Part shown: piece by piece, positions 14,038-48,674 of the stretch
Layout of the letters: every line of letters begins with the position of its first letter
How positions within the stretch are numbered: the first letter of the stretch is position 1
Source of the DNA: an uncultured candidate division WWE3 bacterium
GTDB taxonomy: Bacteria; Patescibacteriota; WWE3; UBA101185; UBA10185
Direction of reading: 5' to 3'
DNA: 64,000 bases
Assembly: GCA_903879985.1 (NCBI GenBank)
Contig: CAIRNR010000007.1
Location: forward strand, 5,382-69,381
Notes under the pieces: model-generated
The model's input: the letters and a program-made list of their open reading frames with translations, nothing else
Databases searched by the model: none
Told to the model about the DNA's origin: nothing
Program-made: the position numbers and the translations under genes

Positions 14038-14218
14038 AGAAGGCTTAGTGAAATTTAAAGAACTTTACGCCAAGCGTTATGGAGTTGAACTTACTGAAAA
14101 GGAAGTCTCCGAAAAAGCTAACCAATTACTTAATTTCTATCGGGCAGTTTTTAGAGAACCAACAAATATAAAAATAAATATAACCTATGAGCAAAAAATA
14201 CGAAGTAAGAAAAATTAA
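14027..14218 (+). CDS. small protein (63 aa), paralogue of 5163..5340
   Basis: Shares the conserved 'YxKRYGVELTEKEVSEKANQLLNF' block with the protein at the other end of the element. Confidence 0.45.
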   Translation: MVSREGLVKFKELYAKRYGVELTEKEVSEKANQLLNFYRAVFREPTNIKINITYEQKIRSKKN

Positions 14219-14603: not shown

Positions 14604-14659
14604 GCACTAGAATATCCCTTTGAAGACTGACATTAGTAATTAGTTATTTAGGAAACAAT

Positions 14660-15745: not shown

Positions 15746-15791
15746 TATAATTAACTTGATACTATAAACTTATAATTGTAAGGTTATTGTA

Positions 15792-17471
<1,680 letters not shown>

Positions 17472-20865: not shown

Positions 20866-21267
20866 TTACTTTAAATACAAGCTCGCAAAGGCTAGTTGAA
20901 TGCGCCCGGCTGAGTTAAGTTGTTCTTCCATATATGTGAAACCCAACTTTTCGGCCAGTTTTAAAATATCGGTCTCCGCAGGAAAAGGTGCCTTTCTGAA
21001 ACCATACTTTATGTGGTTTACCCACGTATAACCGCGTCTACCATCAGTAATGTTGCAGTAGTTGGGTAAAATCATGCATTCCAACACTGCGTTTGGGTAT
21101 TCCCCAGTGACTTGCCGAATTACAAAATATACGTACACCACATCGGTACAACACTTTCTACGGTAATCTGCATATTCAATGCCTACCAACGATTTGCCAA
21201 GTACTTCGACAATCATTTGCATCCACTCCAACGATCCCGACTGAACATCCTTAAAATCCTTTGTCAT
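20866..21267 (-). CDS. hypothetical protein (133 aa)
   Basis: The ORF is open, but there is no confident family assignment. Confidence 0.35.
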   Translation of the reverse strand: MTKDFKDVQSGSLEWMQMIVEVLGKSLVGIEYADYRRKCCTDVVYVYFVIRQVTGEYPNAVLECMILPNYCNITDGRRGYTWVNHIKYGFRKAPFPAETDILKLAEKLGFTYMEEQLNSAGRIQLAFASLYLK

Positions 21268-25195: not shown

Positions 25196-25639
25196 ATGAA
25201 CGCGATACTTATAATAAGTGGTAAACGTGGCAGCTACGATTACACGATGTGGCTTGAAGATGCTATACAAAAATATGTGTTGCAAAAAGAGCTAGAACAC
25301 ATCAAGGTAAGAACCGTTGCTTTAAACGAAGTGGTGGCCATATCTCAAAGGGAACTTTCCCACTTTACAATGGCCATCGTTGATATGGGAAAAACTCCAG
25401 AAAAGGACATTGAGCTGGAAACCATCAGCATGCTACGGTTCCTTAAAGAATCCGGAATTTACTGCATCGTTGTACATCGGTTTGACGTAACTCCCAGTTT
25501 TGTGAGGGAGATTCTGCGCGCCCGCGGAATTAATCCACGGCATGCCCACGATATTTTGGATGGCCGACATTCAATTGAATCCGTGGTAAAAGATGTAATG
25601 TTGCAATTAAGTTACGCGGTAGTACAAAAATCAAAATAA
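25196..25639 (+). CDS. hypothetical protein (147 aa)
   Basis: GAGAGGAAAAG RBS. I recognise no family. Confidence 0.4.
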   Translation: MNAILIISGKRGSYDYTMWLEDAIQKYVLQKELEHIKVRTVALNEVVAISQRELSHFTMAIVDMGKTPEKDIELETISMLRFLKESGIYCIVVHRFDVTPSFVREILRARGINPRHAHDILDGRHSIESVVKDVMLQLSYAVVQKSK

Positions 25640-25751
25640 TAGACGAGTAAATATAATGAAAACAAAACCCTTCTCGACAAAAGCGCGAAGGGTTTCTTTT
25701 TACGCATTTATATTACTAGCAACTTTAATCAATGCCTTGTAAAATCAACAT

Positions 25752-27698
25752 ATGGTCACAATTTTAGATTTTTATTTATCTACACTATTGTTCGCGATTC
25801 CGGGCTTTTTATTTATTCACAAACTATTTCCCAAGAACGCAGGTAAAAACTATGCATTTAGTAGAATATTTGGACTTCTTATAATTTCCTACCTTTCATG
25901 GATATTTGCGTACGTTCTTAGAATTAAAATCACGACTGTTTCAATACTTGCCCTTGTTTTTGTAACAACATTATTAGGACTTTACCTAAATAAAAGTATT
26001 CTGAAAACTTTATTAAAAAAATATTACAAACCGGTGTTACTATACGAGCTTTTGTTTATTATATTTTTCTCCGCAATGCTTTTGTACAGATCGGCGACAC
26101 CCAACATTGAAGATATTGAAAAATTTATGGACTTTGGAATTTATAACGGGCTGTATCGAGCCGAAACTGTTCCGCCAAAAGACGTGTGGATGAGTGGAAA
26201 GATAATTAACTATTACTATTTCGGACAATATTCACTTGTAACCATAAATAAAATTAATCATATTGATACCGCTGTTTCATATAATCTAAATGTAGCGTTA
26301 ATTTTTGCCAGTGCAGGCGTCATGCTTTTTGCCATTTGTTTTGTAATAACAAACAATTTTTTTGCGTCGTTATTTGGTGCGCTCTTATTAATAGTAGCCG
26401 GCAACATAGACATTATGTTCCACGACCTTTCAGGAACAACTACTGGTTATTTTTATGCTGATGCACGAAGCTTAATTAAATACACAATAAACGAATTTCC
26501 GGCTTACAGCTTTTTAATTAGTGACCTTCACGCACATATTATTGATTTACTTTACGTAGTATTAATGCTTGGTCTTACAGTTAACTACTTTTTTACCGCC
26601 ACCGAAGAAACAAATATATTTCAGCTCGGCGTATTGGCACTTAGCTTGGGAGCTCTTGGTGTAACAAATACTTGGGATCTAATCATTTACGCCCCACTAG
26701 TGTTTTTGATAACGCTATGGAAACACAGGCTAAAAGTGCCGGAGATATTTGCAGTAGCACCAATTTCAATTCTTCTTTTTTTGCCTTATTACATTGATTT
26801 TAATTCGGCCACTTCAGGCGTAGGAATTGTGACACAAAGAGATGAAATTTTACCAATAATGAAAATGTTCGGATATTTCTTTATGGCAAGTCTTTTGTAC
26901 GTTACCTTTTTTGTAAAAAACAAATTTGTAAAGCCAGAACATAAGCTTGTTGGATTATTTTTTATGTACGCACTTTTTTTAGTTTGCGTGCCGGAAGTCG
27001 TTTTTTTAAAAGATATATATTTTAAATTAAATCCACCCTACTCTCGTGCCAACACTGTCTTTAAAGTGTGGTATCAGGCTTGGGTTTTGTTTTGCATTGC
27101 TACAGCTTGTGCGTATTTTTACCTGATAAAAAGATTTTGGCCAAAAATTAAAAAGATTAAGACCTTCCCAATATTTTTACCATTTATCATGGATGTAGCA
27201 TTACTAACTTTTTTTGTGTTTAAATATCCTATAAATAGCGTTCGATATATAACCGGGGATACATACGAAAACAAAGGACTAAACGGTGAGGACTACCTTA
27301 AATCTTATTCACTTGGCGATTACATACTTATAAAATATCTGAATCAAAACATTACTGGGCAACCGATTATTTTAGAAGCAGCAGGATCTTCATATACCCA
27401 TGATTCTGTTATATCTTCATATACAGGACTTCCTACTGTAATAGGTTGGTCCGATCATGAACTTGGGTGGCGCGCCGATTGGCCGTATATTGCAAACCGC
27501 CTTGGTGATATCGAAATAATGTATAAAAGCTCTGACATCGAAAAGGTTTCAGAATTAGTTAAACAATATGGTATTCAATATGTAGTCATCTCAGGAACAG
27601 AGCGCGCAAAATACGGTGCAAACGCCGGAGAAACTTTAAAGGAACTATATTCTACAATATACGAAAGCGACGGCGTGACTTTGCTAAAAACAAACTAA
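25752..27698 (+). CDS. large multi-TM membrane protein with C-terminal extracytoplasmic domain (glycosyltransferase-like, DUF2298-like)
   Basis: 648 aa. An N-terminal block of ~12 TM segments is followed by a soluble tail. Confidence 0.45.
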   Translation: MVTILDFYLSTLLFAIPGFLFIHKLFPKNAGKNYAFSRIFGLLIISYLSWIFAYVLRIKITTVSILALVFVTTLLGLYLNKSILKTLLKKYYKPVLLYELLFIIFFSAMLLYRSATPNIEDIEKFMDFGIYNGLYRAETVPPKDVWMSGKIINYYYFGQYSLVTINKINHIDTAVSYNLNVALIFASAGVMLFAICFVITNNFFASLFGALLLIVAGNIDIMFHDLSGTTTGYFYADARSLIKYTINEFPAYSFLISDLHAHIIDLLYVVLMLGLTVNYFFTATEETNIFQLGVLALSLGALGVTNTWDLIIYAPLVFLITLWKHRLKVPEIFAVAPISILLFLPYYIDFNSATSGVGIVTQRDEILPIMKMFGYFFMASLLYVTFFVKNKFVKPEHKLVGLFFMYALFLVCVPEVVFLKDIYFKLNPPYSRANTVFKVWYQAWVLFCIATACAYFYLIKRFWPKIKKIKTFPIFLPFIMDVALLTFFVFKYPINSVRYITGDTYENKGLNGEDYLKSYSLGDYILIKYLNQNITGQPIILEAAGSSYTHDSVISSYTGLPTVIGWSDHELGWRADWPYIANRLGDIEIMYKSSDIEKVSELVKQYGIQYVVISGTERAKYGANAGETLKELYSTIYESDGVTLLKTN

Positions 27699-28259: not shown

Positions 28260-28712
28260 ATGACCGAACAAAACACACCAGAAACACAAACCGAGCAGAA
28301 ATTTACATGCATACACTGCGGCATAACCATTGAAGTAACACCTTTTATGGGAACAAATAACCGTAACCATTGCCCAACTTGTTTATGGTCAAAACACGTT
28401 GATGAAACAACAGGTGATCGAAAATCAACTTGTGGCGGCGCTATGGAACCAATTGGATTAACTTTCAAAAACGCTACAGGTGGTGCAACTGGTGAACTAA
28501 TGTTAATTCACGAATGCATGGAATGCGGGAAATTTAATATAAATAGAATAGCTGCCGATGACGATATAGATGCTATTAAAAAAGTGTTTGAAAATTCACT
28601 ACTTCCCGACATACGCTCAATAAGTAATAAACTTAAGCAGCAAAACATTCACTTAGCGACATATAAAGATTCCGAAGAAGTTCACACCCAACTTTTTGGT
28701 AAGAACAGTTGA
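28260..28712 (+). CDS. RNHCP-domain zinc-ribbon protein
   Basis: 'NNRNHCPTCLWSKHVDE' matches RNHCP, and there are extra CxxC pairs ('CIHCG', 'CMECG'). Confidence 0.6.
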   Translation: MTEQNTPETQTEQKFTCIHCGITIEVTPFMGTNNRNHCPTCLWSKHVDETTGDRKSTCGGAMEPIGLTFKNATGGATGELMLIHECMECGKFNINRIAADDDIDAIKKVFENSLLPDIRSISNKLKQQNIHLATYKDSEEVHTQLFGKNS

Positions 28713-28743
28713 TTATATTTTGGTCCACCTTTATCATATAAAA

Positions 28744-29376
28744 ATGTATATCGTCCTTGAAGGAATAATTGGAACTGGTAAAACTACGCAATCAAAAAAA
28801 CTTGCTGAATACCTGAAACAAAAATTTCCTGAAAAAGAGATTGTAACTACACGTGAGCCGGGCGGAACTGAAATTGCGGAAGTGATTCGTAAAGTTGTTC
28901 AAGGCACAGAATTCGAAGAAGAAATGGAATGTGTTTGCGAAGCATATTTGTATGCAGCTTCGCGTGCACAATCGTTACGAAAGATTGTTAAACCAGTAAT
29001 AGATAGAGGTGGCATAGTCGTTTCAGACAGAAGTTTTATTACCAGTTTAACAAACCAAGCATTTGGGCGTGATCTGGGTTTACAAAAAGTTTTGGATATA
29101 AACTTACCGGCCGTTGCCGAGATAATGCCGGATTTAGTATTATTCATGGACTTGGATATTAAAAAAGGTATGCTCCGAGCCTTTGACCAAAAAGGCGATA
29201 AATTCGAGTCTTTAGGTGAAGATTTCTACCAAAAAGTCTATAACGGTCACAATGAAGTAACCAAATTACCGATTTTTAAAGATAAATGGCTAAGTATCGA
29301 CGCGGATGGTACTATTGACGAGGTCTTTGAACGAGTTAAACTGGCTGTTGAGTCTTTTTTATTAAATCGTGTATAA
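28744..29376 (+). CDS. tmk: thymidylate kinase
   Basis: 'MYIVLEGIIGTGKTTQ' is the P-loop, 'TREPGGT' follows, and there is an LID region. The start is placed at the internal Met of ORF 28696..29376. Confidence 0.85.
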   Translation: MYIVLEGIIGTGKTTQSKKLAEYLKQKFPEKEIVTTREPGGTEIAEVIRKVVQGTEFEEEMECVCEAYLYAASRAQSLRKIVKPVIDRGGIVVSDRSFITSLTNQAFGRDLGLQKVLDINLPAVAEIMPDLVLFMDLDIKKGMLRAFDQKGDKFESLGEDFYQKVYNGHNEVTKLPIFKDKWLSIDADGTIDEVFERVKLAVESFLLNRV

Positions 29377-29398: not shown

Positions 29399-29473
29399 GG
29401 GGGCGTAGCTCAGTGGTAGAGCATCTGCCTTTTAAGCAGAGTGTCGTGGGTCCGATCCCCACCGCCCTCACCA
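29399..29473 (+). tRNA. tRNA-Lys (TTT)
   Basis: Acceptor GGGGGCG/CGCCCTC, D-arm GCTC/GAGC, anticodon loop CTTTTAA, T-arm GTGGG/CCCAC, and an encoded CCA. Confidence 0.85.
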
Positions 29474-29618
29474 TAATTTCATTGTTCTACCAGACGCACT
29501 CTCTTATAGATATATACATCAAAAATACCAAACTAAATAAAAGATAACTTACAAATCAAAGCGGTGATATAATTTTATTGAACATAAAACGAATCTAGCT
29601 TAGGAAAGGAGAACTACT

Positions 29619-29771
29619 ATGTCCCCGTATCACGGTCCTGGAGAAGGTGACGAGGAAGAGTCCGCCGGTGAACAAGAAGAAGCCGCACAAACTGAGGAAG
29701 AACAGCTTTGGTCTCAGCGTGAGGAAGAACTTGAAGCACAGGGCGGATATACCGGCGACGAAGAAACTTAA
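29619..29771 (+). CDS. 50-aa acidic (Glu-rich) mini-protein, paralogue-like of 3280..3420
   Basis: GGAAAGGAG RBS. The product is MSPYHGPGEGDEEESAGEQEEAAQTEEEQLWSQREEELEAQGGYTGDEET*. The opening 'MS..GP' plus acidic run is the same as in the other copy. It lies 145 nt downstream of tRNA-Lys. Confidence 0.45.
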   Translation: MSPYHGPGEGDEEESAGEQEEAAQTEEEQLWSQREEELEAQGGYTGDEET

Positions 29772-29869
29772 ACAATGAGTTTACCTACCGGCATTAGCGT
29801 CATCCGTGGAGTGAGCAGATTTCAAGTTTTATAAACCTACGAGTCTGCCCACTCCAAAATTTTACACAT

Positions 29870-30316
29870 ATGATGTACATAAAATATTTAGACCAAGCAA
29901 AAATAGTTGGAAAATTCCAAACAATTGAGCAAATAGTAGCGGTAAAACCTCGTGTTGTTGAGGCAGTTGGATATCTTATAAAAGAGGATGATTCAGGATT
30001 TTTCATCGCCGCCACAATAAACGGACCTCAATATAACAATGTGTTATTTATTCCAAAAGAAGCAGTAGTAGAAGTTGTTAAAGAAACTGCTCAAAATTCA
30101 AACAACAATATGTTTGTTGAAATGGAATACATTGAAACACAGGGTATGGATAAAATATCAAAGGATAAGTTAGAAACAATGCCTAAGCCTCCTATTGTTA
30201 AGATTTGCGGATTTTTAGCTGTGGAAACCGAAGATACAATGTATATTGCTCAAGAAAAAAATACAGACGGTGCTTTTAGGACGATAACTCTTATTCCTAA
30301 AAAATATATTAAATAA
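29870..30316 (+). CDS. hypothetical protein (148 aa)
   Basis: The ORF is open, with no family assignment. Confidence 0.4.
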   Translation: MMYIKYLDQAKIVGKFQTIEQIVAVKPRVVEAVGYLIKEDDSGFFIAATINGPQYNNVLFIPKEAVVEVVKETAQNSNNNMFVEMEYIETQGMDKISKDKLETMPKPPIVKICGFLAVETEDTMYIAQEKNTDGAFRTITLIPKKYIK

Positions 30317-30325
30317 CAATATTCA

Positions 30326-31504
30326 CTAACGATAACCCTGCAAAACCCTTACTAAATTCTCATAAACAGCGGCATTTAGTAAATTGCCAGGAATCATATT
30401 CCAACTATAAATATAGACCAGTGGTATTACAACTAACATCAATAGCTTTGACCTGCGCGTCTGAAACAAATTACTTAAGGGTATCACTATAGTAAACGGC
30501 GCAATAGCCAGTAAACAGCGACTCAAATCAGTATGAATAACGAAAAGCATTAATAAAAAATATACTAAGGAATACTTAAAAAGCACTCCTCTATTACGGA
30601 TCTGATACAGACCAAATCCGTATAGTAAGTACATTAACAGATAAAACTCAGCAGAATGTGTATTTGCACTTTTTGAATACGCTACAAAAATTTCAAAAGG
30701 ATAGCTACCAAATAACCTTGAGTTATAAGACATGTACGCAAAAAAATCCCCGAATACGTGTTGATAATAGAAAAATGTAAGGAATAGCGGAATACCCCCA
30801 GCATAAATAATCCAAAGATTCCTATCACAAACTAATTTTTCTAGAAAGCTGTAAATCTGCACTATATATCCTTTGATATTTTTGGTAGCCGTGTGTTTTC
30901 GATTTTTGTAATGCTCAAAGAATAATTCAGTTAAATATATAGGTATCAATAAAATTCCGAATATTCTAGTAATACTGGCCAACCCAGCAAATAAAGAGGC
31001 CAAGGCATATTTCTTTTTATAAAAACATAATAATGATGTGATTAATAAGGCCAAGAAAATTCCTTCGGTAGCACCAAGATTGCGATATATTAAAATTCTA
31101 GGAGGCAAAAACAAAAGAAGGATTGCCGCCCAAAACGGTTGCTCCACAAGCTTAAGTTCTTTTACGAACAGATAAAAGATAACTGACAAATATATTGAAG
31201 AAATTATAGATACAAGCAACATCCCAATTTCATATCCTGAAAAAAAAGACATAAACCTTATTAACAGTGGATAAAAGGGTAGATGGCAAGAAAAGTAGGA
31301 AGGAGGGATTCCATAAAAGCTTAAGGGATTATTTTCGGGAATAGAATACAAGGTTTTCGCTACATACATGTAATTTGGGCCATCCCAATATCTTGTTAGA
31401 ACACTGATATTGTTACGAAATGGAAAATATAGTGCTAATGCTGCGATCAAAGTAATGAGTATTAGTATATAAATTTCGTTGAGATTTTTAGCTTTGCTGT
31501 TCAC
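30326..31504 (-). CDS. multi-TM membrane protein, glycosyltransferase-like (DUF2029/GT87-like)
   Basis: 392 aa and hydrophobic throughout. Confidence 0.4.
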   Translation of the reverse strand: MNSKAKNLNEIYILILITLIAALALYFPFRNNISVLTRYWDGPNYMYVAKTLYSIPENNPLSFYGIPPSYFSCHLPFYPLLIRFMSFFSGYEIGMLLVSIISSIYLSVIFYLFVKELKLVEQPFWAAILLLFLPPRILIYRNLGATEGIFLALLITSLLCFYKKKYALASLFAGLASITRIFGILLIPIYLTELFFEHYKNRKHTATKNIKGYIVQIYSFLEKLVCDRNLWIIYAGGIPLFLTFFYYQHVFGDFFAYMSYNSRLFGSYPFEIFVAYSKSANTHSAEFYLLMYLLYGFGLYQIRNRGVLFKYSLVYFLLMLFVIHTDLSRCLLAIAPFTIVIPLSNLFQTRRSKLLMLVVIPLVYIYSWNMIPGNLLNAAVYENLVRVLQGYR

Positions 31505-31590
31505 GTTCTTTATTATCTCATTTCTTTATGAAATAAAAAAAGACCACCTACTTTTTACAAAATAGATGGTCTAAAACAAAAACATTGGCG

Positions 31591-32139
31591 TCAGCAGAGT
31601 TCCGTAATTTTCCGACGAAATTCCACAAACGTGATTTCACCCTTATTGAGCCGTGCGAAATCGGGCATATACGAAGGCAAAAGCTCCGGTGGGTCAGCGA
31701 TAATCCCAGAAATCTTGAGAACAAGATCATTTTGATTGCCAACTTTGCAGGTTTTCAGAGCTTTAGACAAGACACGGCGCCGGTACATCATTCCGTTAGC
31801 GATTTTGATTAACGCACTAGGCAATATTTGATCGTCCACGCAACGCACTCCAGGTCTCTGGGGCTTTGTATCAACAACCGGCATGTACCAATAGATTATT
31901 GGGGGCAAGATGCCTTTGTGTGCGTCAATCGGTTTGCTCAATGTGTCACCGTAGGCGTAACAAACCATAAGCGAAATTTCCCGGCGGCGCATTACTTGAA
32001 GCGCTTCCTCAAAGGTATCTGCTGCAACGCTGAAACAGCCTGCATCCTCAAGCGCATCTCTGAAAGCGCTCATGTAATGCCGTGATTGAAAATCACCTAC
32101 ATACAGAATCACCACGGGTGTATGTCCCTTTTTAGCCAT
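31591..32139 (-). CDS. hypothetical protein (182 aa) in GC-rich island
   Basis: The segment has elevated GC. The N-terminal 'PVVILYVGDFQSR' has a Rossmann-like look, but I can assign no family. Confidence 0.45.
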   Translation of the reverse strand: MAKKGHTPVVILYVGDFQSRHYMSAFRDALEDAGCFSVAADTFEEALQVMRRREISLMVCYAYGDTLSKPIDAHKGILPPIIYWYMPVVDTKPQRPGVRCVDDQILPSALIKIANGMMYRRRVLSKALKTCKVGNQNDLVLKISGIIADPPELLPSYMPDFARLNKGEITFVEFRRKITELC

Positions 32140-32176
32140 TACTCACTCCTTTTAGTCTTATGAATGTGAATCAGTT

Positions 32177-32458
32177 TTAGTGTAGCCCTGGAACATCGTT
32201 TAAGATGGTTGCTTTAACTGCATAGTAACCGACATGCTTAAAGCCTTTTATGGTCTTATAATCACTATGCTGTGCCGGCGTTGAAATTTTCCAACATCCT
32301 TCCAGCGAATGTTCCGCGCCATACTTGAACAACGCAACTAAAATCTCCCCTGGTTTAACACGGTTGACTAAATCCTCAAACGTAGTTTCAACTAACGGGA
32401 TACCTTGCTGCGTAGCTACACCATAGGCTTCGTTTCTGCCTAAGTCACCAGAATACAT
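32177..32458 (-). CDS. hypothetical protein (93 aa) in GC-rich island
   Basis: The ORF is open and co-directional with 31591..32139. Confidence 0.4.
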   Translation of the reverse strand: MYSGDLGRNEAYGVATQQGIPLVETTFEDLVNRVKPGEILVALFKYGAEHSLEGCWKISTPAQHSDYKTIKGFKHVGYYAVKATILNDVPGLH

Positions 32459-32587
32459 TGTACCCTCCTAATCTATTGTAGTTTATTGAATCTAGGCGAT
32501 TTTAAACTCTTTTGATTTTAATTACAATTACCGCTTTTTGTGTGTTTTTGGTATACTACAGGGTACAAAATACTAAAAGAAGGAGGC

Positions 32588-32857
32588 ATGATGGGTCTGT
32601 TTGATTCACTGGATATGACGTTAACATGGGATTTCCTGGGAGTGAAGGAAATACCAGCAGGAAAAGCATTGATTATTAGCTACAAAAGAACCCTAGGATT
32701 TGATAGAGGTTCTGTCTATGAGGCTAGGATTACAAGCCAGAAAGAACTTGAGTTAAAAATTGAACACATCGGAGAATTCGAAGACACTCTGGATGCGTTA
32801 ATAACTTCAAAGGGCCTCAAGTACCAGGTTTTGGAAATGAGCTGGAAAGATATCTAA
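32588..32857 (+). CDS. hypothetical protein (~89 aa)
   Basis: AGGAGG RBS at 32581..32586, with ATGATG following. Confidence 0.4.
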   Translation: MMGLFDSLDMTLTWDFLGVKEIPAGKALIISYKRTLGFDRGSVYEARITSQKELELKIEHIGEFEDTLDALITSKGLKYQVLEMSWKDI

Positions 32858-32874
32858 GAAATAGGGAGAGAAAA

Positions 32875-33285
32875 ATGAAAAGTAAGTTTGTTCTAGGTTT
32901 AGTAATCGCTGGGCTGATCCTGCTATTAGGAATTATTATAGCAACAACCCTGGCACAGCTAGACGTGGCCAATAATGTAACCGACACTAAGGCCCAAATA
33001 AACGGCATTGCCTATGCAGCCGTCCTGGCGTCGTTCTTGCTGATTCCGTTGATGATTCTGCAATTCGCAAGAAAGCCAAAGATGCAAGCGTATGGGATCA
33101 TTGCATGCTGGGGAATCGTCTTTGGAACTTTCGGTTACCAGTTTCTTGGTATCACAGGCGTGTATTATCAGCTATTGGTTCCAGAAATCGGAAAATTAAT
33201 TATCTTTACAGGCATAGCCCTCTGTTTCGGAAGCTGCTTGTACGGATTAATTGGACATCATTTTCACCGGCTGAACTTCGCCTGA
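32875..33285 (+). CDS. small integral membrane protein (4 TM)
   Basis: GGGAGAGAAAA RBS, and hydrophobic. Confidence 0.45.
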   Translation: MKSKFVLGLVIAGLILLLGIIIATTLAQLDVANNVTDTKAQINGIAYAAVLASFLLIPLMILQFARKPKMQAYGIIACWGIVFGTFGYQFLGITGVYYQLLVPEIGKLIIFTGIALCFGSCLYGLIGHHFHRLNFA

Positions 33286-33410
33286 AAATCGATTCCGCAA
33301 CACAAAGCTCTAGTTAATAAAAAACTGGAGCTTTTTCTTTTCCCCTAATTTTTTCTTGCAAAACTACCCTGCTAGCTTATAATACCAACCTGTAGAAGGA
33401 GACGTAACCA

Positions 33411-33809
33411 ATGGAAAGTTTCAGATTTGATGAAAGATTGTGTATTAACTGTGATAGTCCATTACCAGCAGGAGCCGTATTGTTTTGCAAAGTGTGCAAA
33501 CCATCGAGTTATCCGGTAAGACAACGTGATCCGCATGAGCAAGATATTGTGGGTAACCTTAAACACTGCGACATTGCATATATTACGCCCGACACCGTGT
33601 TCCGCCATAAAAACAACAGACTGTATATATTGGACAGCTGCCGCTTTTATTTGGAACCGCATGATGATGCCAAAGTTCGGATTAAACGCCACGGCGGGCT
33701 AGTTTTGATTGATCGCTGTAGCCTTGGAAACTATAACTATCCCTGGCGCAATGGTGAAATGGATGACTGGAATCATATGATTTTGGTTGATTTAGTACAA
33801 TCGTTTTAA
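33411..33809 (+). CDS. hypothetical protein with N-terminal CxxC…CxxC zinc ribbon
   Basis: AGGAG RBS. The zinc-ribbon residues are 'CINCDSP…CKVCKP'. Confidence 0.45.
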   Translation: MESFRFDERLCINCDSPLPAGAVLFCKVCKPSSYPVRQRDPHEQDIVGNLKHCDIAYITPDTVFRHKNNRLYILDSCRFYLEPHDDAKVRIKRHGGLVLIDRCSLGNYNYPWRNGEMDDWNHMILVDLVQSF

Positions 33810-34106
33810 GACCTCTTATTTGTATCCTAAAGATACTTTAGGAGGTTATTTTTTTGATAAAACCACGATTCCGCACAATACCCTATAGTTTGACTAATTA
33901 GGCAGAATAACCTATAATACAAGGTGTTTCCAAGAAAGCACATTTAAAAAAGAATGTGGTAAGGCTGCGGGTAATTAGTGATTTAGACCACTAAATTGCT
34001 GATTGTCCGCAGTCTTTTGTCCTCATGACTCAAGATCCTAAGGGAGCGTTCCACACGCTTGCGGTGATGTTTTCACAACATGAGTAAGGTGACACAGGAG
34101 GTCACA

Positions 34107-34838
34107 ATGGAAAACAAAGTTATTGAAAAAGGCAACAAAAATGAAGAAGGTATCCAGAACACTGAGATACGGGCCGCTGTGATAGCGAATCGAAAAATGA
34201 TTGAAAAGAAGCTTCGCATTTTTTCGATCATCATGGTTGTATTGGTTGTGCTTGTAATTATTATCATTACACTTGCCAGCGCGTTGAACTCGATAAAATC
34301 AATCACCAACACTAACGGTATGATTGATCGAGCTATTGCTGCAAACAATAACAAGGCCACAATCATGAACTCCCTCGAAGTCGTTAACCTGATCATGGAT
34401 AAACGGGAAAAACGGATGCTGTTCCACATTGAGCAGACCACAGATAAATTCAATATCGAAATGCTGGGATCAAACTTAAAACATTTTAAATATGGCGCCA
34501 CGAACTGTGCAAAAGTTGGCGACTTTACCAGCATGAATGAAACTTCCCAGGAAAACGAATACGTAACCGAAGGCAAAGGCATCTGGATCTCGATTCAACT
34601 TTGCGGAGAAGGATATACTATGGTGGCTAATTCCCAAAACCTGGATCCAACCATAGCACTGCTTTGGATGCCCGAAGAAGCAATGATCGGGGTAACATCC
34701 TTCCGGGATTTTGAATACGCAGTCCGGAAGTACGCAATCGTTTATCATATCAACCAGGAAAGATTATCAATTTTGCTGGATATGGATGTAAACGCGCTAC
34801 CTCCAAATCAATTACTGCCCAAACCCCCAGCCCAATAA
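34107..34838 (+). CDS. membrane-anchored hypothetical protein (single TM + extracytoplasmic domain)
   Basis: AGGAGG RBS before 'MENKVIEKG'. It has one TM helix, 'IMVVLVVLVIIIITLASAL'. Confidence 0.45.
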   Translation: MENKVIEKGNKNEEGIQNTEIRAAVIANRKMIEKKLRIFSIIMVVLVVLVIIIITLASALNSIKSITNTNGMIDRAIAANNNKATIMNSLEVVNLIMDKREKRMLFHIEQTTDKFNIEMLGSNLKHFKYGATNCAKVGDFTSMNETSQENEYVTEGKGIWISIQLCGEGYTMVANSQNLDPTIALLWMPEEAMIGVTSFRDFEYAVRKYAIVYHINQERLSILLDMDVNALPPNQLLPKPPAQ

Positions 34839-34953
34839 TAACCTGCTGGGGCCATTTTAAAAAAATGTACGAACAAACCCCTTTTGAATAAAAACAAGAG
34901 GGGTTATTTTTTGCGCCAATCAGCGAAAAACACAAAAAACGCGATATTTCTTG

Positions 34954-35775
34954 CTAACCAAATCTCTTTACAGACAAACTAACATCCATAAACTCCTCAA
35001 TCCTCTCCAAAGCTTTAGTTCGTCCTGCAACCGTTCCAAAGTGTCCCCCATTTTCAATAACAGGCACAGCATCGTCTCCCATATCCTTTTTAAACTCCTC
35101 TACTCTGGCGTAATCCACATAAATATCTGAATTTCCAAACACGAATAACGTTGGATAGCGTTCATCCAGTTTTGTCTTTTCCTCGATTATTTTTAAAATC
35201 ACCAATGCTGATTTGTTATCAAACTGCAATAAAGCCTCTAAATCACCTGCGGAAACATTAATCCCAATTCTTTCGCTTAATATTTTTAAAATATCACTGG
35301 CACAAGCTTTTTTATAAATATCGGCAGGTAGCGCATCGCAAACACGTAACCCGATCTTTCCGGTTTCTGTGGCAACGCTATTACAAAAGTTAATTGGTGA
35401 TGACCATAAAGCTGTGGGTACAATTTTTCCTGAATCTGCAAACAACGAAGCGGCTTCCAAAGCTATTAATCCACCAAATGAAAATCCAATAAAACCAAAG
35501 TTATCCAAACCTAGCGCATCAACCAAATCCTTAACATATTGCCCGTACCCAGTAACATTTGTAATTCCATACATTGGAAGATATCCGTGGCCCGGTAAAT
35601 CCAGCAAAATAAAACGATAATCCTCAGGAACTGAATCTAGTAAGTCATTTATAGCGTCTTTGTTACTTGTGGCACCATGTAAAAACACAATAACTTTTTT
35701 ACTGTCACGTCGCCCAATATCGTAATACTGGTATTTTTTGCCTTTTATAACTTTATCTATTTGCTGCAAGATCAT
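34954..35775 (-). CDS. alpha/beta-hydrolase fold protein
   Basis: The 'VIVFLHGATSN' oxyanion region and the 'GFSFGG' nucleophile elbow are present. The track ORF starts at a TTG at 35850. The ATG at 35775 is given as the conservative start. Confidence 0.65.
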   Translation of the reverse strand: MILQQIDKVIKGKKYQYYDIGRRDSKKVIVFLHGATSNKDAINDLLDSVPEDYRFILLDLPGHGYLPMYGITNVTGYGQYVKDLVDALGLDNFGFIGFSFGGLIALEAASLFADSGKIVPTALWSSPINFCNSVATETGKIGLRVCDALPADIYKKACASDILKILSERIGINVSAGDLEALLQFDNKSALVILKIIEEKTKLDERYPTLFVFGNSDIYVDYARVEEFKKDMGDDAVPVIENGGHFGTVAGRTKALERIEEFMDVSLSVKRFG

Positions 35776-35846
35776 AACTAAAGTATAGCGTAGAAAAAAT
35801 AAGGATTCTGTTTTTTGGGCAAAATCCTTATATCTCCCACCTATAC

Positions 35847-36059
35847 TCAAACCTGTCGAAATTCATAGATGTGACTCCATGCTTCATTTGATATAACAAC
35901 AAGCTTACCGGCATATCTTCCTGTATTAATGCCAAAAGCGTTATTGCTAAACTGTTCAAGCACTGTGCCTTCTTCTAATATCAACGTCACACCACAATGA
36001 TCTACCCATAACCAATCGCGTACCTTGAAAACAATCCTTATGTCAACTTGTGTAGGCAT
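35847..36059 (-). CDS. small hypothetical protein (70 aa)
   Basis: The ORF is open and overlaps the hydrolase gene by 4 nt. Confidence 0.3.
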   Translation of the reverse strand: MPTQVDIRIVFKVRDWLWVDHCGVTLILEEGTVLEQFSNNAFGINTGRYAGKLVVISNEAWSHIYEFRQV

Positions 36060-36143
36060 AAATCATCTCCTTTTTATATTGTTACTATATTATGGATACG
36101 CAGAAATATATACGTCAAGAGTAATTGTCAGTATAATGAATTC

Positions 36144-37232
36144 ATGGATACGCCCACATCCTCAAGTGCTCAGTCTATAGCGGAACAAATCTTATATAAC
36201 GTTTCCGAAGGTATCTTTGCCGTTGATACCAATTACAACATCACTATTTTCAACTCTATTCTCGAAAAAATGCTTGGTCTAAGTAAAGAAAGCGTTATAG
36301 GAAAACCTTTTGATAAGATTATTTCCGTAGAATCAAAAACCAAAGAACCAATAGACCTTAAACAATATTTCTTTAAAACACAAGCTTTGTTTGATGTAAT
36401 TTTAAAAGGTCCCACTCAAAACTACTACGTTAATATTAAGTTCTCAGGTCTAAAGACTGAAACAAATACTGCCGAATGTTTAATAACAATGTCGGACACA
36501 ACAAAAGAAATCTCACTTGATAAAGCAAAAGACGACTTTCTGGCATTGGCCTCTCACGAACTTTTCACACCGCTTACAATTATTAAAAGTTATTTGTGGA
36601 TGTTAAATACTAATCAAGACGGAATCTTAAATGAAAAACAAGCCGAGTATGCTAACAAGGCATATCACAGTACTGAAACTTTAATTTCAATGGTTTCAGA
36701 CATGCTCAATGTTTCGCGACTTGAACAGGGAAGATTAACTTTTAATTGTAAAGCCGGAAAAATAGTTGCTACCGTTCAAGAAGCATTAAAAGGTTTTGAT
36801 ATTAAAGCTAAAGAAAAAAACATTAACTTAAAGTTTGATATCTCACAAATTCACACTGAGTTGGACGCATTTTACGATGAGGAAAAACTTAGAGGTTGTA
36901 TCGTAAATTATTTAGCCAATGCTATTAAGTTTACAAAAGAAGGTGGAGTAACTATAAAAATAGAAACGGATACCGATTTTGTAAAAATCTCTGTAACAGA
37001 TACTGGGGTTGGGGTTTCTGATAAGGATAGGTCAAAACTTTTTTCTAAATTTGGTAAAGGCGAAACATCTTACAACAAAATTGTAGAGTCTGGCGGAAAC
37101 GGATTAGGACTTTATATAGTTAAAATCTACGTTGAAGCAATGGGCGGACAAGTTGGTTATAATTCTGACGGTGATTTTAAGGGAAGTACGTTTTGGTTAA
37201 CTGTACCAAAGCACACAGTTCTGCACGATTAA
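36144..37232 (+). CDS. sensor histidine kinase (PAS-like N-terminus + HisKA + HATPase_c), orphan
   Basis: The H-box 'LASHELFTPLT', N-box 'NYLANAIKFT', G1 'DTGVGV' and G2 'GGNGLGL' are all present. There is no adjacent response regulator. Confidence 0.8.
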   Translation: MDTPTSSSAQSIAEQILYNVSEGIFAVDTNYNITIFNSILEKMLGLSKESVIGKPFDKIISVESKTKEPIDLKQYFFKTQALFDVILKGPTQNYYVNIKFSGLKTETNTAECLITMSDTTKEISLDKAKDDFLALASHELFTPLTIIKSYLWMLNTNQDGILNEKQAEYANKAYHSTETLISMVSDMLNVSRLEQGRLTFNCKAGKIVATVQEALKGFDIKAKEKNINLKFDISQIHTELDAFYDEEKLRGCIVNYLANAIKFTKEGGVTIKIETDTDFVKISVTDTGVGVSDKDRSKLFSKFGKGETSYNKIVESGGNGLGLYIVKIYVEAMGGQVGYNSDGDFKGSTFWLTVPKHTVLHD

Positions 37233-37239
37233 GTAAAAA

Positions 37240-37605
37240 TTACTTAACTTGTTTTAATTCTTTAATTCTCATTGCAGCTCTACCTACTTTATCTCTTAAG
37301 TAATAGAGTTTAGCTCTTCGAACTTTACCGTGTTTAAGAACTTCAATTTTATCGATATTAGGGGATTTTAAGACGAATATTCTTTCGACACCTACTGAGT
37401 CAGCAGCAATTCTTCGGACTGTGAAAGTCTTGGAAACGTCTGAACCGTGTCTGCAGATAACAATACCTTCAAATGGTTGAATACGTGTGTGGTCACCTTC
37501 AATAATTTTGTAGTGAACTTTAACAGTATCGCCGGCTCTAAAGTCGGGTAATGTTTTTTCTTCTTTAGTTGTTGTTGCGGTTGCGACCGCTTGAGTTTCT
37601 TCCAT
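37240..37605 (-). CDS. rplS: 50S ribosomal protein L19
   Basis: The '[26 protein letters not shown]…RRAKLYYLR' region is a conserved L19 sequence. Confidence 0.85.
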
Positions 37606-39883: not shown

Positions 39884-40366
39884 TCACAGTTTAATTCTTG
39901 ATACCTTATACGTTCCGTCATTGCTAAGGTAGTACTCATAACTGTATGCTGCCGTTTGTGTATCATCTATAGATGAAGTTTCCAGAGCCAGATATCCCAA
40001 ATCGTTGAATTCAAAATATTCAGCACACTTTTGGCCGCTACGATTATCGTAGATTATTTTAGTCAGTCTGCCCTCCTGATTCCAATAGTACCAGCAAATT
40101 GTCCGCTGCTCTTTTTTAGAAAAACTTTGGGCGCGTACCGGACAGGAACCCGTGGTCGATAAAACACCCAAACCTGAAAGCCAGCAATCAATTTTGATTC
40201 GCCACAATTTGCGTTTTGGGTAGTAAACGCTGGCAGAAGGGGTTTCGGGAAACCACATTTTTAAATGGTGAATGTATTCTTGAACAATATATCCCAGTAG
40301 CAACACTAACAAAAAGGCTACCAGGAACCAAAAGGTCCATCCATGCAAAAAATCCGTAAAAGCCAT
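39884..40366 (-). CDS. hypothetical membrane protein (160 aa)
   Basis: An N-terminal TM helix and W/Y-rich. Confidence 0.4.
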   Translation of the reverse strand: MAFTDFLHGWTFWFLVAFLLVLLLGYIVQEYIHHLKMWFPETPSASVYYPKRKLWRIKIDCWLSGLGVLSTTGSCPVRAQSFSKKEQRTICWYYWNQEGRLTKIIYDNRSGQKCAEYFEFNDLGYLALETSSIDDTQTAAYSYEYYLSNDGTYKVSRIKL

Positions 40367-40440: not shown

Positions 40441-42313
40441 TTAGTGCTCCCAAACATCTCCAACACAAGGATCGGACTTTACAACAACCTTATGAATAAA
40501 TAACTGTGCAGCTCGAACCATTTCGTCCGACTGAACTTGTGCCCAATAATCAGCTTGATCTTCTCGTACTTCCGAAACTATTTCATCGTGAACAGTAAGA
40601 ATCAATCTGGCATCAACACCTTCTTTTTTCATACGTTCCTGCAAATAAACTAATGCGTACTTAACTGCGTCTGCATTTGTTCCCTGAATTGGGTGGTTTT
40701 TTGCTTCGCGCTCTATAGAAGAAACTTTTTTTCGGTAATCAGGATCATCTTTTTCTACTTTGTGATACCAGCGTTTGCGTCCTGCAGGAGTTTCACTATA
40801 ACCAAGCTGAACTGCGCGCTTTGCAATTCGGTCCAAAAAGGTTTTAACACTTGGATAAGATGCAAAATACTTACTGATATATTCTTCACCTTGTTCTTTA
40901 GTAATAGGCGTTCCTGTTTCGGCAGCGATTCGTCCAGACAAACCCATGGCACCCATTCCATACATCAAACCAAAACCAATTGGTTTGGCAATTTGACGAA
41001 GCTGTGGATATTTCTTTTTAAAATCATCACTGTAAGGAACGTTAAACATTAATGATGCCGTGTATGAGTGAATATCTAATCCTTGGTTTAAAGCGTTTAT
41101 CATTTTTTCGTCTCCACTAAGTTCTGCTAAAATTCTCATTTCAAAACTTGAGTAGTCTGCTGTTACTAATTTATAACCGGGCTGTGGATTAAAACAAGTT
41201 CTAAATGGAGCTTCTGCTGAATTACGCGGAATTTGTTGAAGGTTTGGATTGTTACAAGAAAACCTTCCCGTTGCAGCACCAAGCTGATTATATTCTGGGT
41301 GGAATCTTCCGGTTACAGGATTCATCTTAGCTAATAAACTTTCTCCAAACGCAGACATTAACTTTGCATAACCACGATATTCTCTAAGAATTTTTACAAC
41401 AGGATGACTTACACCTTGTAAAATACCATCACCCGTTGAAGGAACATTTAACTTTAATCTATTATTTAAAAGGTCCATTAACTGAACGTTACTGTTCATA
41501 TTAATAATGTCAGCTTGGTTACCAAACAGATCGATCATATTTGTTTTGTAGTACGGCTTTATAGACTCCTGAAAATCTTTAGCAAGTTGACTTCGCTTAA
41601 CTTCCAAGTTCTTCATTATTTCTCGCCATCTCGCAACATCAATATAAATTCCATTAAGTTCCATTTCTGCAACAACACGTGTGGTCGCAAACTCAAGCTT
41701 GGCAATATTCAAAAAGTTTATGCTTTGATAACTGCTGCAACTGAGCTTCAAATATTGGAAACATTATTAACGTATCAATAGCACCGTACTTTAATTGATC
41801 GTCTGTAAGTCTGGAATTTTTTGACATTGTAATAAAAGTTTCTCGTATTTCCTTACTCATATTGTAATTCGCATACTTCATCGCCAAATCTTTAAGTTTG
41901 TAATATCCGGCACCAAGTCCTGCGTTTAAAATAGATTCGGTCAACATCGTGTCATATAAATTAGCCATTTCTATTCCAGTGGTCATTTTAATTTGCTTAT
42001 AATCAAACTTTCCGTTATGCAAAATTTTAATTATTTGTGGATTTTCCAATAAAGATTTGAAACGTGGGATTTCGCGTAAATTAAGTAGGCGTGCATCAAA
42101 GATCCAAGTTTTATGATCGTTACCAATTTGAATAGTAAGTAACATTGTTTGAAATGGATCAAGTGAATTACTTTCAACGTCAACGCCTAAAGCTTTTTCT
42201 TTTTCCAAATCATCAATAGCTTTGTTTGCTTCTTCAACCGTTGTTATATAAACGTATTCAGGATTTTGTGGGTCAAACTTTAGTTCCTTAACAATTTCTT
42301 TGGTTGGGTCCAT
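40441..42313 (-). pseudogene. polA: DNA polymerase I, Klenow-like (3'-5' exonuclease + family-A polymerase, no 5'-nuclease domain), interrupted by a frameshift in an A5/T5 homopolymer at 41711..41715
   Basis: The exonuclease ORF 41693..42313 and the polymerase ORF 40441..41751 overlap by 59 nt in different frames. Removing one T from the T5 run gives a continuous '…LSKHKLLNIAKLEFATTRVVAEMELNGI…'. The polymerase motifs 'RQIAKPIGFGLMYG' and 'LTVHDEIV' are present. Confidence 0.6.
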
Positions 42314-42435: not shown

Positions 42436-42741
42436 ATGTCAGAACTTGGTTACTTACCAAAACGTGGTATTAAAACTTGGATAGTTGCTGTTTTATGGCC
42501 GGTGCTTTTGTTTTTGACGGGAATACTCAGCGGTTGGGGAATGACGTTATCTGCAGCAATTTGCAGGCCAATGGAACATGTGGTTACAAAGGGAATTTTT
42601 GTGGTCGTCACAATTCTCGCCGGGGTATTGAGCTTTGAGTACGCGCAAAGATTGTCCAGCAATAGATTTGTGCAAATCATATACGCTCTACTCTGTCTGT
42701 TCGCGTTTTTTGTGGCATGCTTTGTGCTTAAGTTAAATTGA
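42436..42741 (+). CDS. small membrane protein (101 aa)
   Basis: Three hydrophobic helices. Confidence 0.4.
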   Translation: MSELGYLPKRGIKTWIVAVLWPVLLFLTGILSGWGMTLSAAICRPMEHVVTKGIFVVVTILAGVLSFEYAQRLSSNRFVQIIYALLCLFAFFVACFVLKLN

Positions 42742-42877: not shown

Positions 42878-43450
42878 ATGACAGATCGAATAGCAACAGG
42901 TACTGTTAAAGTATCTAAATATGGAACCTTCAACCGAGGTGGCTATGGTCAGGAATATTTTAGCGAGCGGCTGCTCGGACATCAAAGTCCCAACTATTAT
43001 GTAAACACATTCGTTGGTGACTTTGTTGATATTGTTGATGCAAAAGGCAAATTGGTTATAACGATGTGCCTCTCTGATTTCAATCGTGTAGACAACATTT
43101 CCGGCCAGCATGAAGTTATGAGCGGCGGATGGCTGGTAGACTCTTTAAGGTCACAAGCCAAGTACATCAAATCGGGAATTACATCTCTCGACTTTGAAAT
43201 AAGGCAGCGCAAGACTCTCATAGCCAGAATACTTGCCGCAGAAAAAGGGCACAGGGGAAGTTTTATCGATAATTCGCCATTTTACAAAGTCGACGCAAAA
43301 AAATATCCGCGTGGCCGCATGCTTATGCTATTAGTGTTAAACGGCATGAAAGATTTTCGGGTAATTGATTCCAAAGGATATATTGTACCTGCCGAGAAAA
43401 AATATCCATTGGCAGGAGATGCTCCAATTAGGGATCATGATTTCTGGTAA
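42878..43450 (+). CDS. hypothetical protein (190 aa), moderately GC-rich
   Basis: AAAGGAG RBS, and no family assigned. Confidence 0.45.
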   Translation: MTDRIATGTVKVSKYGTFNRGGYGQEYFSERLLGHQSPNYYVNTFVGDFVDIVDAKGKLVITMCLSDFNRVDNISGQHEVMSGGWLVDSLRSQAKYIKSGITSLDFEIRQRKTLIARILAAEKGHRGSFIDNSPFYKVDAKKYPRGRMLMLLVLNGMKDFRVIDSKGYIVPAEKKYPLAGDAPIRDHDFW

Positions 43451-47866: not shown

Positions 47867-48011
47867 ACTAAGACATTTTAGCAGTATTCAATTGGTTTAT
47901 AAAGGTTTTGGCTCCGGAATTGAATCCTGACAATAACCTGTAGGAAGTTGACTTTTGCCACTAACAACATAAAATGACCCTACCAAAAATATAGTGCTAA
48001 GGAGAGAACAA

Positions 48012-48674
48012 ATGGATGTACCGTGCGAGAAGCATATTACCCAGGCGGTAGTTGCTGCAGTCTATTGGCGAGAGAATAAAGGCAAATTGAACACAGCTTT
48101 GGAAATACTTAAGGGAACTCTAAATTGCATTCCAAGCTCCAGAAACATACCCATGGCAAAGACATTGGTTTACGGCCAAATGGCAATTACTCTGGAAAAG
48201 ATGGCTAAGTACGAGGATATGAAAAAAATCTGTGAGCAGATGATTAAAGAGCTGGATTATCGACACGCAGCTTTCTATCACAGAATGTTATCCGAGTATT
48301 ACCTTCACACCGGAGACGTCAAATTTGCGCTCATTCAGGCACACGAAGCGTATCGTTTGGCCAAGAAGTATAACCTGCCAGACAGAGTGTGGTACTCCCA
48401 TCAGGTTGTTACTACATTGTCGGTGCAACCTGGGATATCAAAACACGCAATGGAGCAAACGGTAGAAAAGGAGCGACGTGATTTGCTGTATAGCCTTAGC
48501 CTAAACCCAACAGAAACTGAGCGTGATGTTTGGGCATTAAGCGCGTATTTCAGTGCACTCCGTTATAACCGGAAACTGCTAAAGAAATACAAAACATCGT
48601 GGGTAATAAAACAACTATTTACGGAGCGATTTTGGATTAGAGTGTTTCGGATGGTAACAAAAAGGCACAGTTAA
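48012..48674 (+). CDS. hypothetical protein (~220 aa), helical/TPR-like
   Basis: AGGAGAG RBS, and no family assigned. Confidence 0.4.
   Translation: MDVPCEKHITQAVVAAVYWRENKGKLNTALEILKGTLNCIPSSRNIPMAKTLVYGQMAITLEKMAKYEDMKKICEQMIKELDYRHAAFYHRMLSEYYLHTGDVKFALIQAHEAYRLAKKYNLPDRVWYSHQVVTTLSVQPGISKHAMEQTVEKERRDLLYSLSLNPTETERDVWALSAYFSALRYNRKLLKKYKTSWVIKQLFTERFWIRVFRMVTKRHS

Follow-up and report, generated by a model that had tools for sequence, protein, structure and literature searches.

Six family-less small genes in a GC-rich patch between tRNA-Lys and rplS of a candidate division WWE3 bacterium: a probable mosaic islet of laterally imported genes

The DNA considered here is a stretch of 64,000 nucleotides, called the window below, from an uncultured bacterium of candidate division WWE3 (Patescibacteriota; positions 5,382 to 69,381 of contig CAIRNR010000007.1, GenBank assembly GCA_903879985.1). 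Our subject is a 3.3-kb patch of this window, region 31550-34850, which holds six small genes named here after the lengths of their products: g182 and g93 on the minus strand, followed by g88, g136, g132 and g243 on the plus strand (Table 1). A first-pass annotation, made from the sequence alone, had noticed a shift towards G+C in this region, and the shift was borne out when it was computed. The region is 41.9% GC against a window mean of 36.7% (standard deviation 2.1 points, 3.3-kb windows), which makes it the top 3.3-kb GC window of the whole 64 kb, at a level reached by 0.08% of sliding windows. The 400-bp GC profile is far from flat, reaching 0.47 at ~31600 and dropping below 0.39 past ~34900, with both shifts at gene boundaries.

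The shift is located at synonymous sites, and the composition there is foreign. GC content at third codon positions (GC3) is 0.40-0.49 in the six patch genes, compared with a median of 0.295 in other open reading frames (ORFs; Mann-Whitney p=2e-4), and at four-fold degenerate sites the GC content is 0.482 in the patch genes, while 26 native genes have 0.259 (chi-square 80, p=3e-19). Codon usage, which had been proposed as a check on the shift, thus agrees with it in all six genes by both measures. Expression-linked codon bias can be ruled out as the source of the high GC3, because the native, highly expressed genes for the ribosomal protein L19, the chaperone ClpC and GatCAB have a low GC3 of 0.23-0.29.

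All six predicted ORFs are present, with the start positions of g88 and g243 corrected from the positions of Shine-Dalgarno (SD) sequences, public gene calls and alignment with a homologous locus. The new start of g243 is backed by its ribosome-binding site, by public gene calls and by alignment with the homologue at locus L094, where the upstream ATG is missing. Strong AGGAGG-type ribosome-binding sites had been claimed for most of the genes, and an AGGAG-type SD sequence is indeed seen before every one of them (AAAGGAG, TAGGAGGG, GAAGGAGG, AGGGAGAG, GAAGGAGA and CAGGAGG). The genes are real, as is evident from these strong SD sequences, from terminator-like sites, from a ratio of non-synonymous to synonymous polymorphism (pN/pS) of 0.12 in a tract of g136 described below, and from gene calls that are conserved on 16-30 public contigs.

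The layout of two plus four genes turned out to be one of four separate units, since terminator-like hairpins follow g182, g136, g132 and g243. Terminator-like sites are enriched in the region (9 compared with 3.1±1.4 expected), with one after each unit. The patch is made up of four self-contained expression units, namely g93-g182, g88-g136, g132 and g243, and within the two pairs the genes are spaced by 37 nt (g93-g182) and 17 nt (g88-g136), and each pair ends in a single terminator-like hairpin. Only two of the units, g132 and g243, have a good promoter-like site in front. No paralogy was detected among the island genes or between them and the other GC-rich orphan ORFs (ORFans) of the window, and no flanking motifs common to the GC-rich units were found.

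Table 1. Features of the patch and its surroundings, in window coordinates unless a locus is named (L094, L104 and L107 are loci from other genomes).
Feature	Position	Strand	Remarks
tRNA-Lys(UUU)	29399-29473	+	ARAGORN, Rfam; left edge of the interval differing from L104
Variable interval	29474-37239	.	7.7 kb, 11 genes; between tRNA-Lys and rplS
Terminator-like hairpin ending the g93-g182 unit	31541-31572	-	14-pair stem and T-run; left edge of the GC-rich patch
g182	31591-32139	-	182 aa
g93	32177-32458	-	93 aa
Divergent intergenic region	32459-32590	.	Between two minus-strand and four plus-strand genes; weak promoter-like matches, both strands
g88	32591-32857	+	~88 aa; start corrected to 32591
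g136	32875-33285	+	136 aa; 4 hydrophobic/transmembrane segments
Terminator-like hairpin 3' of g136	33304-33334	+	
Promoter-like site 5' of g132	33356-33383	+	TTGCAA-16-TATAAT; consensus match only
g132	33411-33809	+	132 aa; CxxC...CxxC
Terminator-like hairpin 3' of g132	33825-33843	+	
Promoter-like site for the g243 unit	33890-33918	+	TTGACT-17-TATAAT; 11/12 matches, near-consensus
Structured 5' leader of g243	33955-34106	+	~29-bp hairpin 33959-34018, two small hairpins, SD within GACxxAGGAGGTC
g243	34107-34838	+	One predicted transmembrane segment; start 34107, not 34080
Terminator-like hairpin 3' of g243	34876-34905	+	Right edge of the GC-rich patch
rplS (L19)	37240-37605	-	Right edge of the variable interval; synteny with L104 resumes (rplS-clpC-polA)
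Leader counterparts	L094 7432-7582; L107 9502-9651		
Other family-less ORFs	1802-2950, 20866-21267, 25196-25639, 39884-40366, 42436-42741, 42878-43450, 47994-48674, 54994-55302, 60375-60908, 60924-61181		GC3 ~0.38 or more

The ORFs had been expected to resist annotation, and they did. None of the six matched a family in Pfam, NCBIfam, PHROGs or PADLOC, and their isolated domains were without a match too. The system protein models of PADLOC-DB 2.0 gave only noise at E>0.01, no effector domain, whether toxin, nuclease, NTPase or other, came out of the Pfam, NCBIfam and isolated-domain searches, and sequence and profile searches of the PDB returned insignificant matches only. An exhaustive HMMER search with the six proteins concatenated, covering 1.84 billion (1.84e9) representatives, recovered only 3-5 homologue clusters per protein at 27-49% identity, and none of the 24 homologues carries a Pfam family (0/24). 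For g182, a word-based search matched its own cluster alone, with no other 90% cluster among 5.8e9. The six proteins belong to six unrelated, very rare families. Scans of genome contigs gave no match for g182, and for ClpC they gave distant homologues from Bacillota and others at <=58% identity, which were of no use for synteny; a scan of metagenome contigs with the alpha/beta hydrolase next to the patch gave one match, at 36% identity on a 2.7-kb contig.

Homologues were examined in eight independent contexts (L093, L094, L095-98, L099, L100, L102, L106 and L107), each of which was searched by tblastn with all of the families. In all eight the homologue is solitary, and none of the other island families occurs in the flanking sequence of up to 10 kb on each side. 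Neither pair of genes is kept: the N-domain of g182 occurs without g93 in L093 and g93 without g182 in L106, while g136 occurs without g88 in L100 and g88 without g136 in L102. Several homologues are GC-richer than the rest of their locus (0.495/0.336 in L094, 0.529/0.418 in L107, 0.444/0.353 in L100 and 0.423/0.378 in L106), and others are on contigs of ~45% GC (L095, L102). The g243 homologue of L094 adjoins a 551-aa large serine recombinase, and some homologues are found in regions that also carry Mrr- or AbiEii-like genes. Upstream and downstream flanks of the five families other than g243 are not conserved between hosts.

The closest relative found, L104 (a 165-kb contig, ENA ERZ23486243, ATLA15-1 scaffold_32), has amino-acid identities of 87.5% in ClpC, 84% in PolA and 86% in L19 to the window, and its gene order is RNHCP, tRNA-Lys, one 119-aa gene and rplS-clpC-polA. 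The tRNA-Lys region is 91% identical to L104 10506-10621, and there the homology ends. What lies between tRNA-Lys and rplS in the window is an interval of g148, a 392-aa glycosyltransferase C (GT-C)-like protein, the six GC-rich genes, an alpha/beta hydrolase, g70 and an orphan PAS histidine kinase, and none of these 11 genes was found in L104 (tblastn, 20 kb of L104). A presence/absence comparison with relatives had been suggested as a check, and by it L104 lacks the genes in its syntenic interval, with no orthologues in conserved synteny there. The interval that differs begins at the 3' end of tRNA-Lys. The patch is nested in this larger plasticity interval, at a distance of 2.1 kb from the tRNA that is taken up by low-GC genes. 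Viewed as a genomic island, the patch has a composition and codon usage unlike the rest of the genome and is absent from the syntenic interval of L104, with all conspecific contigs carrying it; mobility genes and flanking direct repeats are lacking, and no att-like or tRNA-derived direct repeats were found downstream of tRNA-Lys. A 20-nt direct repeat (29537-29556 and 31172-31191, 19/20 identical) does occur 64 nt past tRNA-Lys and inside the GT-C-like gene, and is probably a chance occurrence in AT-rich sequence.

Conspecific contigs, identical or 98-100% identical to the window, come from lake metagenomes (BUCK21 assemblies; metagenome-assembled genome GCA_903994745.1); the BUCK21 label would fit the lake data set of StratFreshDB (10.1101/2020.11.12.379446). 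Homologues of the flanking RNHCP protein carry the source names Patescibacteria, Daviesbacteria or Paceibacterota. Strains share an identical island apart from short tracts that diverge by ~20%, one in g136 (32979-33156) and one at 32830-32910. Of the changes in the g136 tract, 27 are synonymous and 10 non-synonymous, and because its pN/pS is 0.12, g136 is under purifying selection, and the diverged lineage also carries the gene. Like tracts are seen in native genes (DUF2298, RNHCP). Together with those at 25683-26150, 27029-27341 and 28439-28776, the two island tracts cover a range of 10-21% nucleotide divergence that is mostly synonymous, and in island and native genes alike the tracts look like homologous-recombination imports from a diverged lineage. 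Acquisition would have taken place after the split from the L104 lineage and before the present population diversified; it does not appear recent at the strain level, since all conspecific contigs carry the island and a diverged g136 allele is present in the population. Independent metagenome assemblies stop shortly after the g243 start, inside its first 270 nt (at 34113, 34142, 34271 or 34371), which suggests population-level sequence variation at the 5' end of the gene.

Among the six proteins, g182 gives the clearest structural picture. Structure prediction, which the first-pass annotation had recommended for this gene, yields a receiver (CheY-like) fold: the AlphaFold2 model, with a predicted local distance difference test (pLDDT) score of 80, has a five-stranded alpha/beta receiver-like N-domain and four C-terminal helices that form an extension of ~60 aa. 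Its top Foldseek matches are receiver domains of response regulators (E 2.5e-4, TM-score ~0.68), and its best PDB profile match is a response regulator too, weak at E=0.2. The protein thus has the predicted fold of a response regulator, but it gives no match to the Response_reg family of Pfam (PF00072) and is without the phospho-acceptor residues. According to the alignment and the DSSP assignment of the model, strand 3 ends at position 62 in an invariant Ala in place of Asp, and the expected Thr/Ser behind strand 4 and Lys behind strand 5 are missing, those positions not being conserved. The homologues are stand-alone proteins of ~115 aa, the C-terminal helices are found only in g182 itself, and the family has the signature G-x-LPP-x-x-Y. 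Because of the invariant Ala and the lack of conservation at the Thr and Lys positions, we infer that g182 may be a pseudo-receiver that works independently of phosphorylation and has a signature of its own, and as modelled it is likely to be a regulator. A histidine kinase with PAS, HisKA and HATPase domains (36144-37232) lies in the same variable interval, 4 kb from g182. No canonical response regulator was found among the scanned ORFs of the window, and a link between g182 and this kinase is unsupported.

The other five proteins are a mixture of soluble and membrane forms. The product of g93 is a small soluble protein of a rare ~93-aa family with the motifs GIP... and PGEvLVAL, whose homologues stand alone in L099 and L106. 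That of g88 is small, acidic and soluble, and its family occurs alone, tandemly duplicated, fused to a transmembrane tail or, on a phage-like contig, fused to an extra domain. Four hydrophobic segments in the hydropathy profile make g136 a membrane protein. An N-terminal CxxC-x11-CxxC zinc ribbon in g132 is joined to a beta-rich C-domain, which is present in three copies, without the ribbon, in the homologue P0019. In g243 a single transmembrane segment is predicted at ~aa 38-58, and the C-terminal domain carries two conserved Cys residues as a pair and ends in the motif YxINQ..L..L..D...LP.NQ.L.; its AlphaFold2 model is poor (pLDDT 56) and unusable. We read g243 as a membrane-anchored protein whose large C-terminal domain is most likely extracytoplasmic.

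The g243 gene is also preceded by a structured leader, whose long hairpin lies between the near-consensus promoter-like site and the start codon. The hairpin is stable relative to shuffled sequences (z = -4.8) and strand-specific (-32.8 kcal/mol on the plus strand compared with -16.9 on the minus strand), and it recurs 87-91 nt 5' of the ATG of the g243 homologues in L094 and L107, that is, in both loci examined. The leaders of the window and L094 align strongly over ~150 nt (~70% identity by eye, local-alignment z=27), whereas the g243 proteins are only 24-30% identical, so that the leader is far better conserved in nucleotides than the proteins are in amino acids. In L107 the helix is kept with a different sequence. 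Across the three examples (window, L094 and L107), which are unrelated loci, 13 of the 29 pairs of the helix are altered on both sides, and 92.5% of helix cells pair as against 40-47% with the partners slid, values that were reached by 0 of 500 shuffles. No match to Rfam was obtained at E<=1, and a covariance model of the hairpin, which scores 87-91 bits on the plus strand against 28-36 on the minus strand, found no further copies in 198 kb scanned. Having only three examples, the leader is a candidate cis-regulatory leader rather than an established family. It would most likely control the stability or translation of the g243 mRNA by means of its conserved long 5' hairpin, which is not a canonical attenuator since it has no clear U-tract. 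An integron attC site was also considered and rejected: the hairpin is upstream of the gene and after a promoter-like site, it is single, it lacks the R'/R'' consensus, and it scores far higher on the plus strand.

The patch appears to be part of something wider. Of the ORFs in the window with GC3>=0.38, island included, 0 of 15 have a Pfam family, compared with 37 of the 49 other ORFs (p=1e-7), and since every high-GC3 ORF in the window is without a Pfam family, the island is the biggest grouping within a wider class. Most of the GC-rich ORFans outside the island have their own SD sequence and terminator, and the ensemble looks like a genome-wide class of GC-rich orphan genes. Similar GC-rich, family-less ORFans are visible in other low-GC loci. 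One of them lies on a clean 635-bp insertion relative to L104 (39806-40440), between the upstream region of clpC and the stop codon of polA. This insertion carries a GC-rich 160-aa ORFan on the minus strand (39884-40366), with its own SD sequence and terminator, and has short TTAGT microhomology at both junctions.

A possible donor pool is suggested by L102, a contig of 126 kb and ~45% GC (ENA ERZ26692762 ctg82996) that may be a large phage. In its region 1-20645, 30 of 31 genes are co-directional and almost all are family-less. Besides a PurA/PurZ-like gene, it encodes a protein of 308 aa with matches in 219 phage genomes, which is common to ~154-kb mycobacteriophages. Two separate GC-rich ORFans of the window, g88 and 20866-21267, have homologues on it. 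The wider class fits what is reported of Patescibacteria, in which genomic islands and individually transferred genes, mostly exchanged within the group, are said to make up as much as 13% of genomes (PMC12455944), and genomic islands have been associated with a 'novel gene pool' (Hsiao et al., 2005, as cited in PMC12455944). A bolder proposal, which we hold to be rather improbable, is that the 15 GC-rich ORFans, six of them clustered in the patch, form a class of their own, made up of autonomous cassettes of one or two genes that move among Patescibacteria and their large phages. Such cassettes would need no site-specific recombinase to enter the gaps between core genes, and might do so through transformation and microhomology-mediated illegitimate recombination; they would keep the ~45-50% GC composition of the donor pool across hosts, and the g243 type would bring with it a new class of structured regulatory leader RNA.

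Two other features of the window deserve mention. An integrated mobile element of host-like low GC occupies 5419-17470 and abuts tRNA-His (17394-17470). It encodes a DUF2779 protein, an Eco57I-like N6-methylase/restriction fusion, a HARE-HTH+PD-(D/E)XK protein and DUF5659, together with a tyrosine integrase (14660-15745) and a large serine recombinase (15792-17459), and it has the most atypical dinucleotide signature in the window. The polA gene (40441-42313) is split into overlapping ORFs in different frames, 40441-41751 and 41693-42313. As a conspecific contig and L104 each have one intact gene of 623-625 aa, the split is apparently a frameshift or assembly error in the window sequence.

How the patch came about and what it does can be read in several ways. 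We consider it probable, though well short of certain, that the 3.3 kb are an ordinary genomic islet of mosaic make-up, in which four independent units of laterally imported, family-less accessory genes sit inside the tRNA-Lys-rplS plasticity interval and form no co-evolved machine. The horizontal acquisition proposed by the first-pass annotation is supported by the foreign synonymous GC, by the absence of the genes from the L104 interval and by rare, patchy homologues that are mostly GC-richer than their hosts. That the homologues never co-occur elsewhere is what argues against a co-evolved module, and the 635-bp clpC/polA insertion with its GC-rich ORFan is a precedent for a single cassette in the same window. 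Several points weigh on the other side. No donor is identified, and the dinucleotide relative abundance of the patch is not atypical (rank 63/122). The similar GC3 of the six genes may fit the gain of a contiguous block in one step, and because the whole interval differs in L104, low-GC genes included, no clean 3.3-kb insertion can be delimited; the comparison is with one relative (L104), and 20 kb of it. With the island on every conspecific contig, polymorphism for its presence or absence was not observed. The search of 29-36.5 kb turned up neither an integrase or transposase nor a flanking repeat, IMG/VR gave no homologue to single proteins or family alignments, and neither did INPHARED phages and PLSDB plasmids (tblastn, 875-aa concatenate). 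For five of the six proteins, clustering of the representatives at 50% identity would hide orthologues that are 50-90% identical. Finally, the functional roles proposed here derive only from weak features of structure and sequence.

The contiguity and similar GC3 of the six genes would also suit the remnant of one integrative element or prophage, which arrived once at a tRNA-Lys hotspot and has since lost its integrase and attachment (att) sites. Further points in favour are that the 3' end of tRNA-Lys is the exact starting point of the variable interval, that a 551-aa serine recombinase neighbours the g243 homologue in L094, that a g88 homologue lies on the phage-like 126-kb contig, and that a clear integrase-bearing element is found at tRNA-His in the same window. 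We nevertheless regard such a history as unlikely, given that there is no recombinase, att repeat or phage hallmark in 29-37 kb, that the low-GC, native-like g148 and GT-C-like genes lie between the tRNA and the patch, that the homologues of the six families are never linked elsewhere, and that IMG/VR and INPHARED gave no matches. Assessed as a prophage remnant, the patch shows no phage hallmark, PHROG family or similarity to viral contigs. A third reading needs no import at all, as the genes could be native, vertically inherited, fast-evolving and lineage-specific, with a GC content set by gene-specific constraints such as RNA structure or amino-acid composition. They are carried by all strains, their dinucleotide signature is host-like, and the diverged g136 allele means residence in more than one lineage; the g243 family, moreover, is GC-rich in three hosts at 24-38% identity, which could mean selection for GC rather than repeated transfer. 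Yet all six unrelated genes show their excess at four-fold synonymous sites, none of them occurs in the corresponding interval of the closest relative, the families are distributed patchily and as singletons, and the same signature is borne by the clean single-gene insertion between clpC and polA, so we think this reading quite unlikely. The toxin/immunity or small defence module of which the layout had reminded the first-pass annotation fares worst and is very unlikely. On such a reading g93-g182 could be a two-gene pair and g88-g136-g132-g243 a membrane-associated system, with phages as the target of defence. The genes are small, divergently arranged and in a variable region near a tRNA, the two bicistronic pairs with their spacing of 17-37 nt have the adjacency of type II toxin-antitoxin genes (in layout only), and some homologues are in regions with Mrr- or AbiEii-like genes. 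Against this, there is no PADLOC match and no toxin, nuclease, NTPase or other effector domain, recognisable domains of a type II toxin-antitoxin system are missing, g182 has a receiver-like fold, four terminator-like hairpins divide the cluster, neither pair is conserved (L093, L106, L100, L102), and the homologues are never together in the eight contexts, the reverse of what a co-evolved module would lead one to expect.

If the patch is indeed a mosaic of imported units, the genes would have entered after the split from the nearest sequenced relative, out of a GC-richer pool of ~45-50% GC. That pool would circulate among low-GC genomes that we take to be of similar type, and probably also among their large phages. 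As their failure to co-occur suggests, the genes would act as separate accessory functions and not as one machine, and their net role might, speculatively, be the tuning of the cell envelope and its regulation at the strain or species level, i.e. of interaction with host cells or phages.

The outcome is mainly a negative one: a compositional island of small orphan genes near a tRNA does not by itself point to toxins or defence. What tells the two readings apart is whether the homologues co-occur elsewhere, and this test fails for the patch. What is new is modest, and comprises six rare protein families outside Pfam, among them the receiver-fold family of the pseudo-receiver g182 with its G-x-LPP-x-x-Y signature, and a covarying candidate leader RNA outside Rfam. 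High synonymous GC is a near-perfect marker of family-less genes in this streamlined genome, and such a marker offers a simple handle on the gain of accessory envelope and regulatory genes in ultra-small symbiotic bacteria.

Among known systems, the patch resembles the genomic islands and islets of Patescibacteria (PMC12455944) in its atypical composition, its place in a tRNA-adjacent variable interval, its wealth of family-less genes and the patchy distribution of their homologues in other low-GC genomes. Unlike those islands, it is only 3.3 kb long, has no integrase, transposase or direct repeats, is GC-richer and not AT-richer than its host, and consists of four units with homologues that are never linked. 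An integron cassette array is ruled out, as the patch has no integrase, a mixed orientation, unit-specific promoter-like sites, and one hairpin, upstream of one gene and without copies elsewhere. The N-domain of g182 is like receiver and pseudo-receiver domains (PF00072) in its modelled five-stranded alpha/beta fold, and unlike receivers in having Ala62 for Asp, no Thr/Ser, no Lys, no Pfam match and the G-x-LPP-x-x-Y signature. Structured leaders of 5' untranslated regions include hairpins that are processed by RNase III or that control translation. The g243 hairpin differs from the known ones in having no Rfam match and three examples, known from sequence alone, and it shares with them a long, strand-specific and covarying hairpin at a fixed 87-91 nt from the start codon of one family. 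The 'moron' cassettes of phages are genes with their own promoter and terminator and a composition unlike their surroundings. The patch differs from morons in lying in a chromosome without a surrounding prophage and in giving no IMG/VR or INPHARED matches; it is like them in that each unit is self-contained with a terminator-like end, two units have promoter-like sites, the composition is unlike that of the flanks, and g88 and another ORFan of the window have homologues on the phage-like 126-kb contig.

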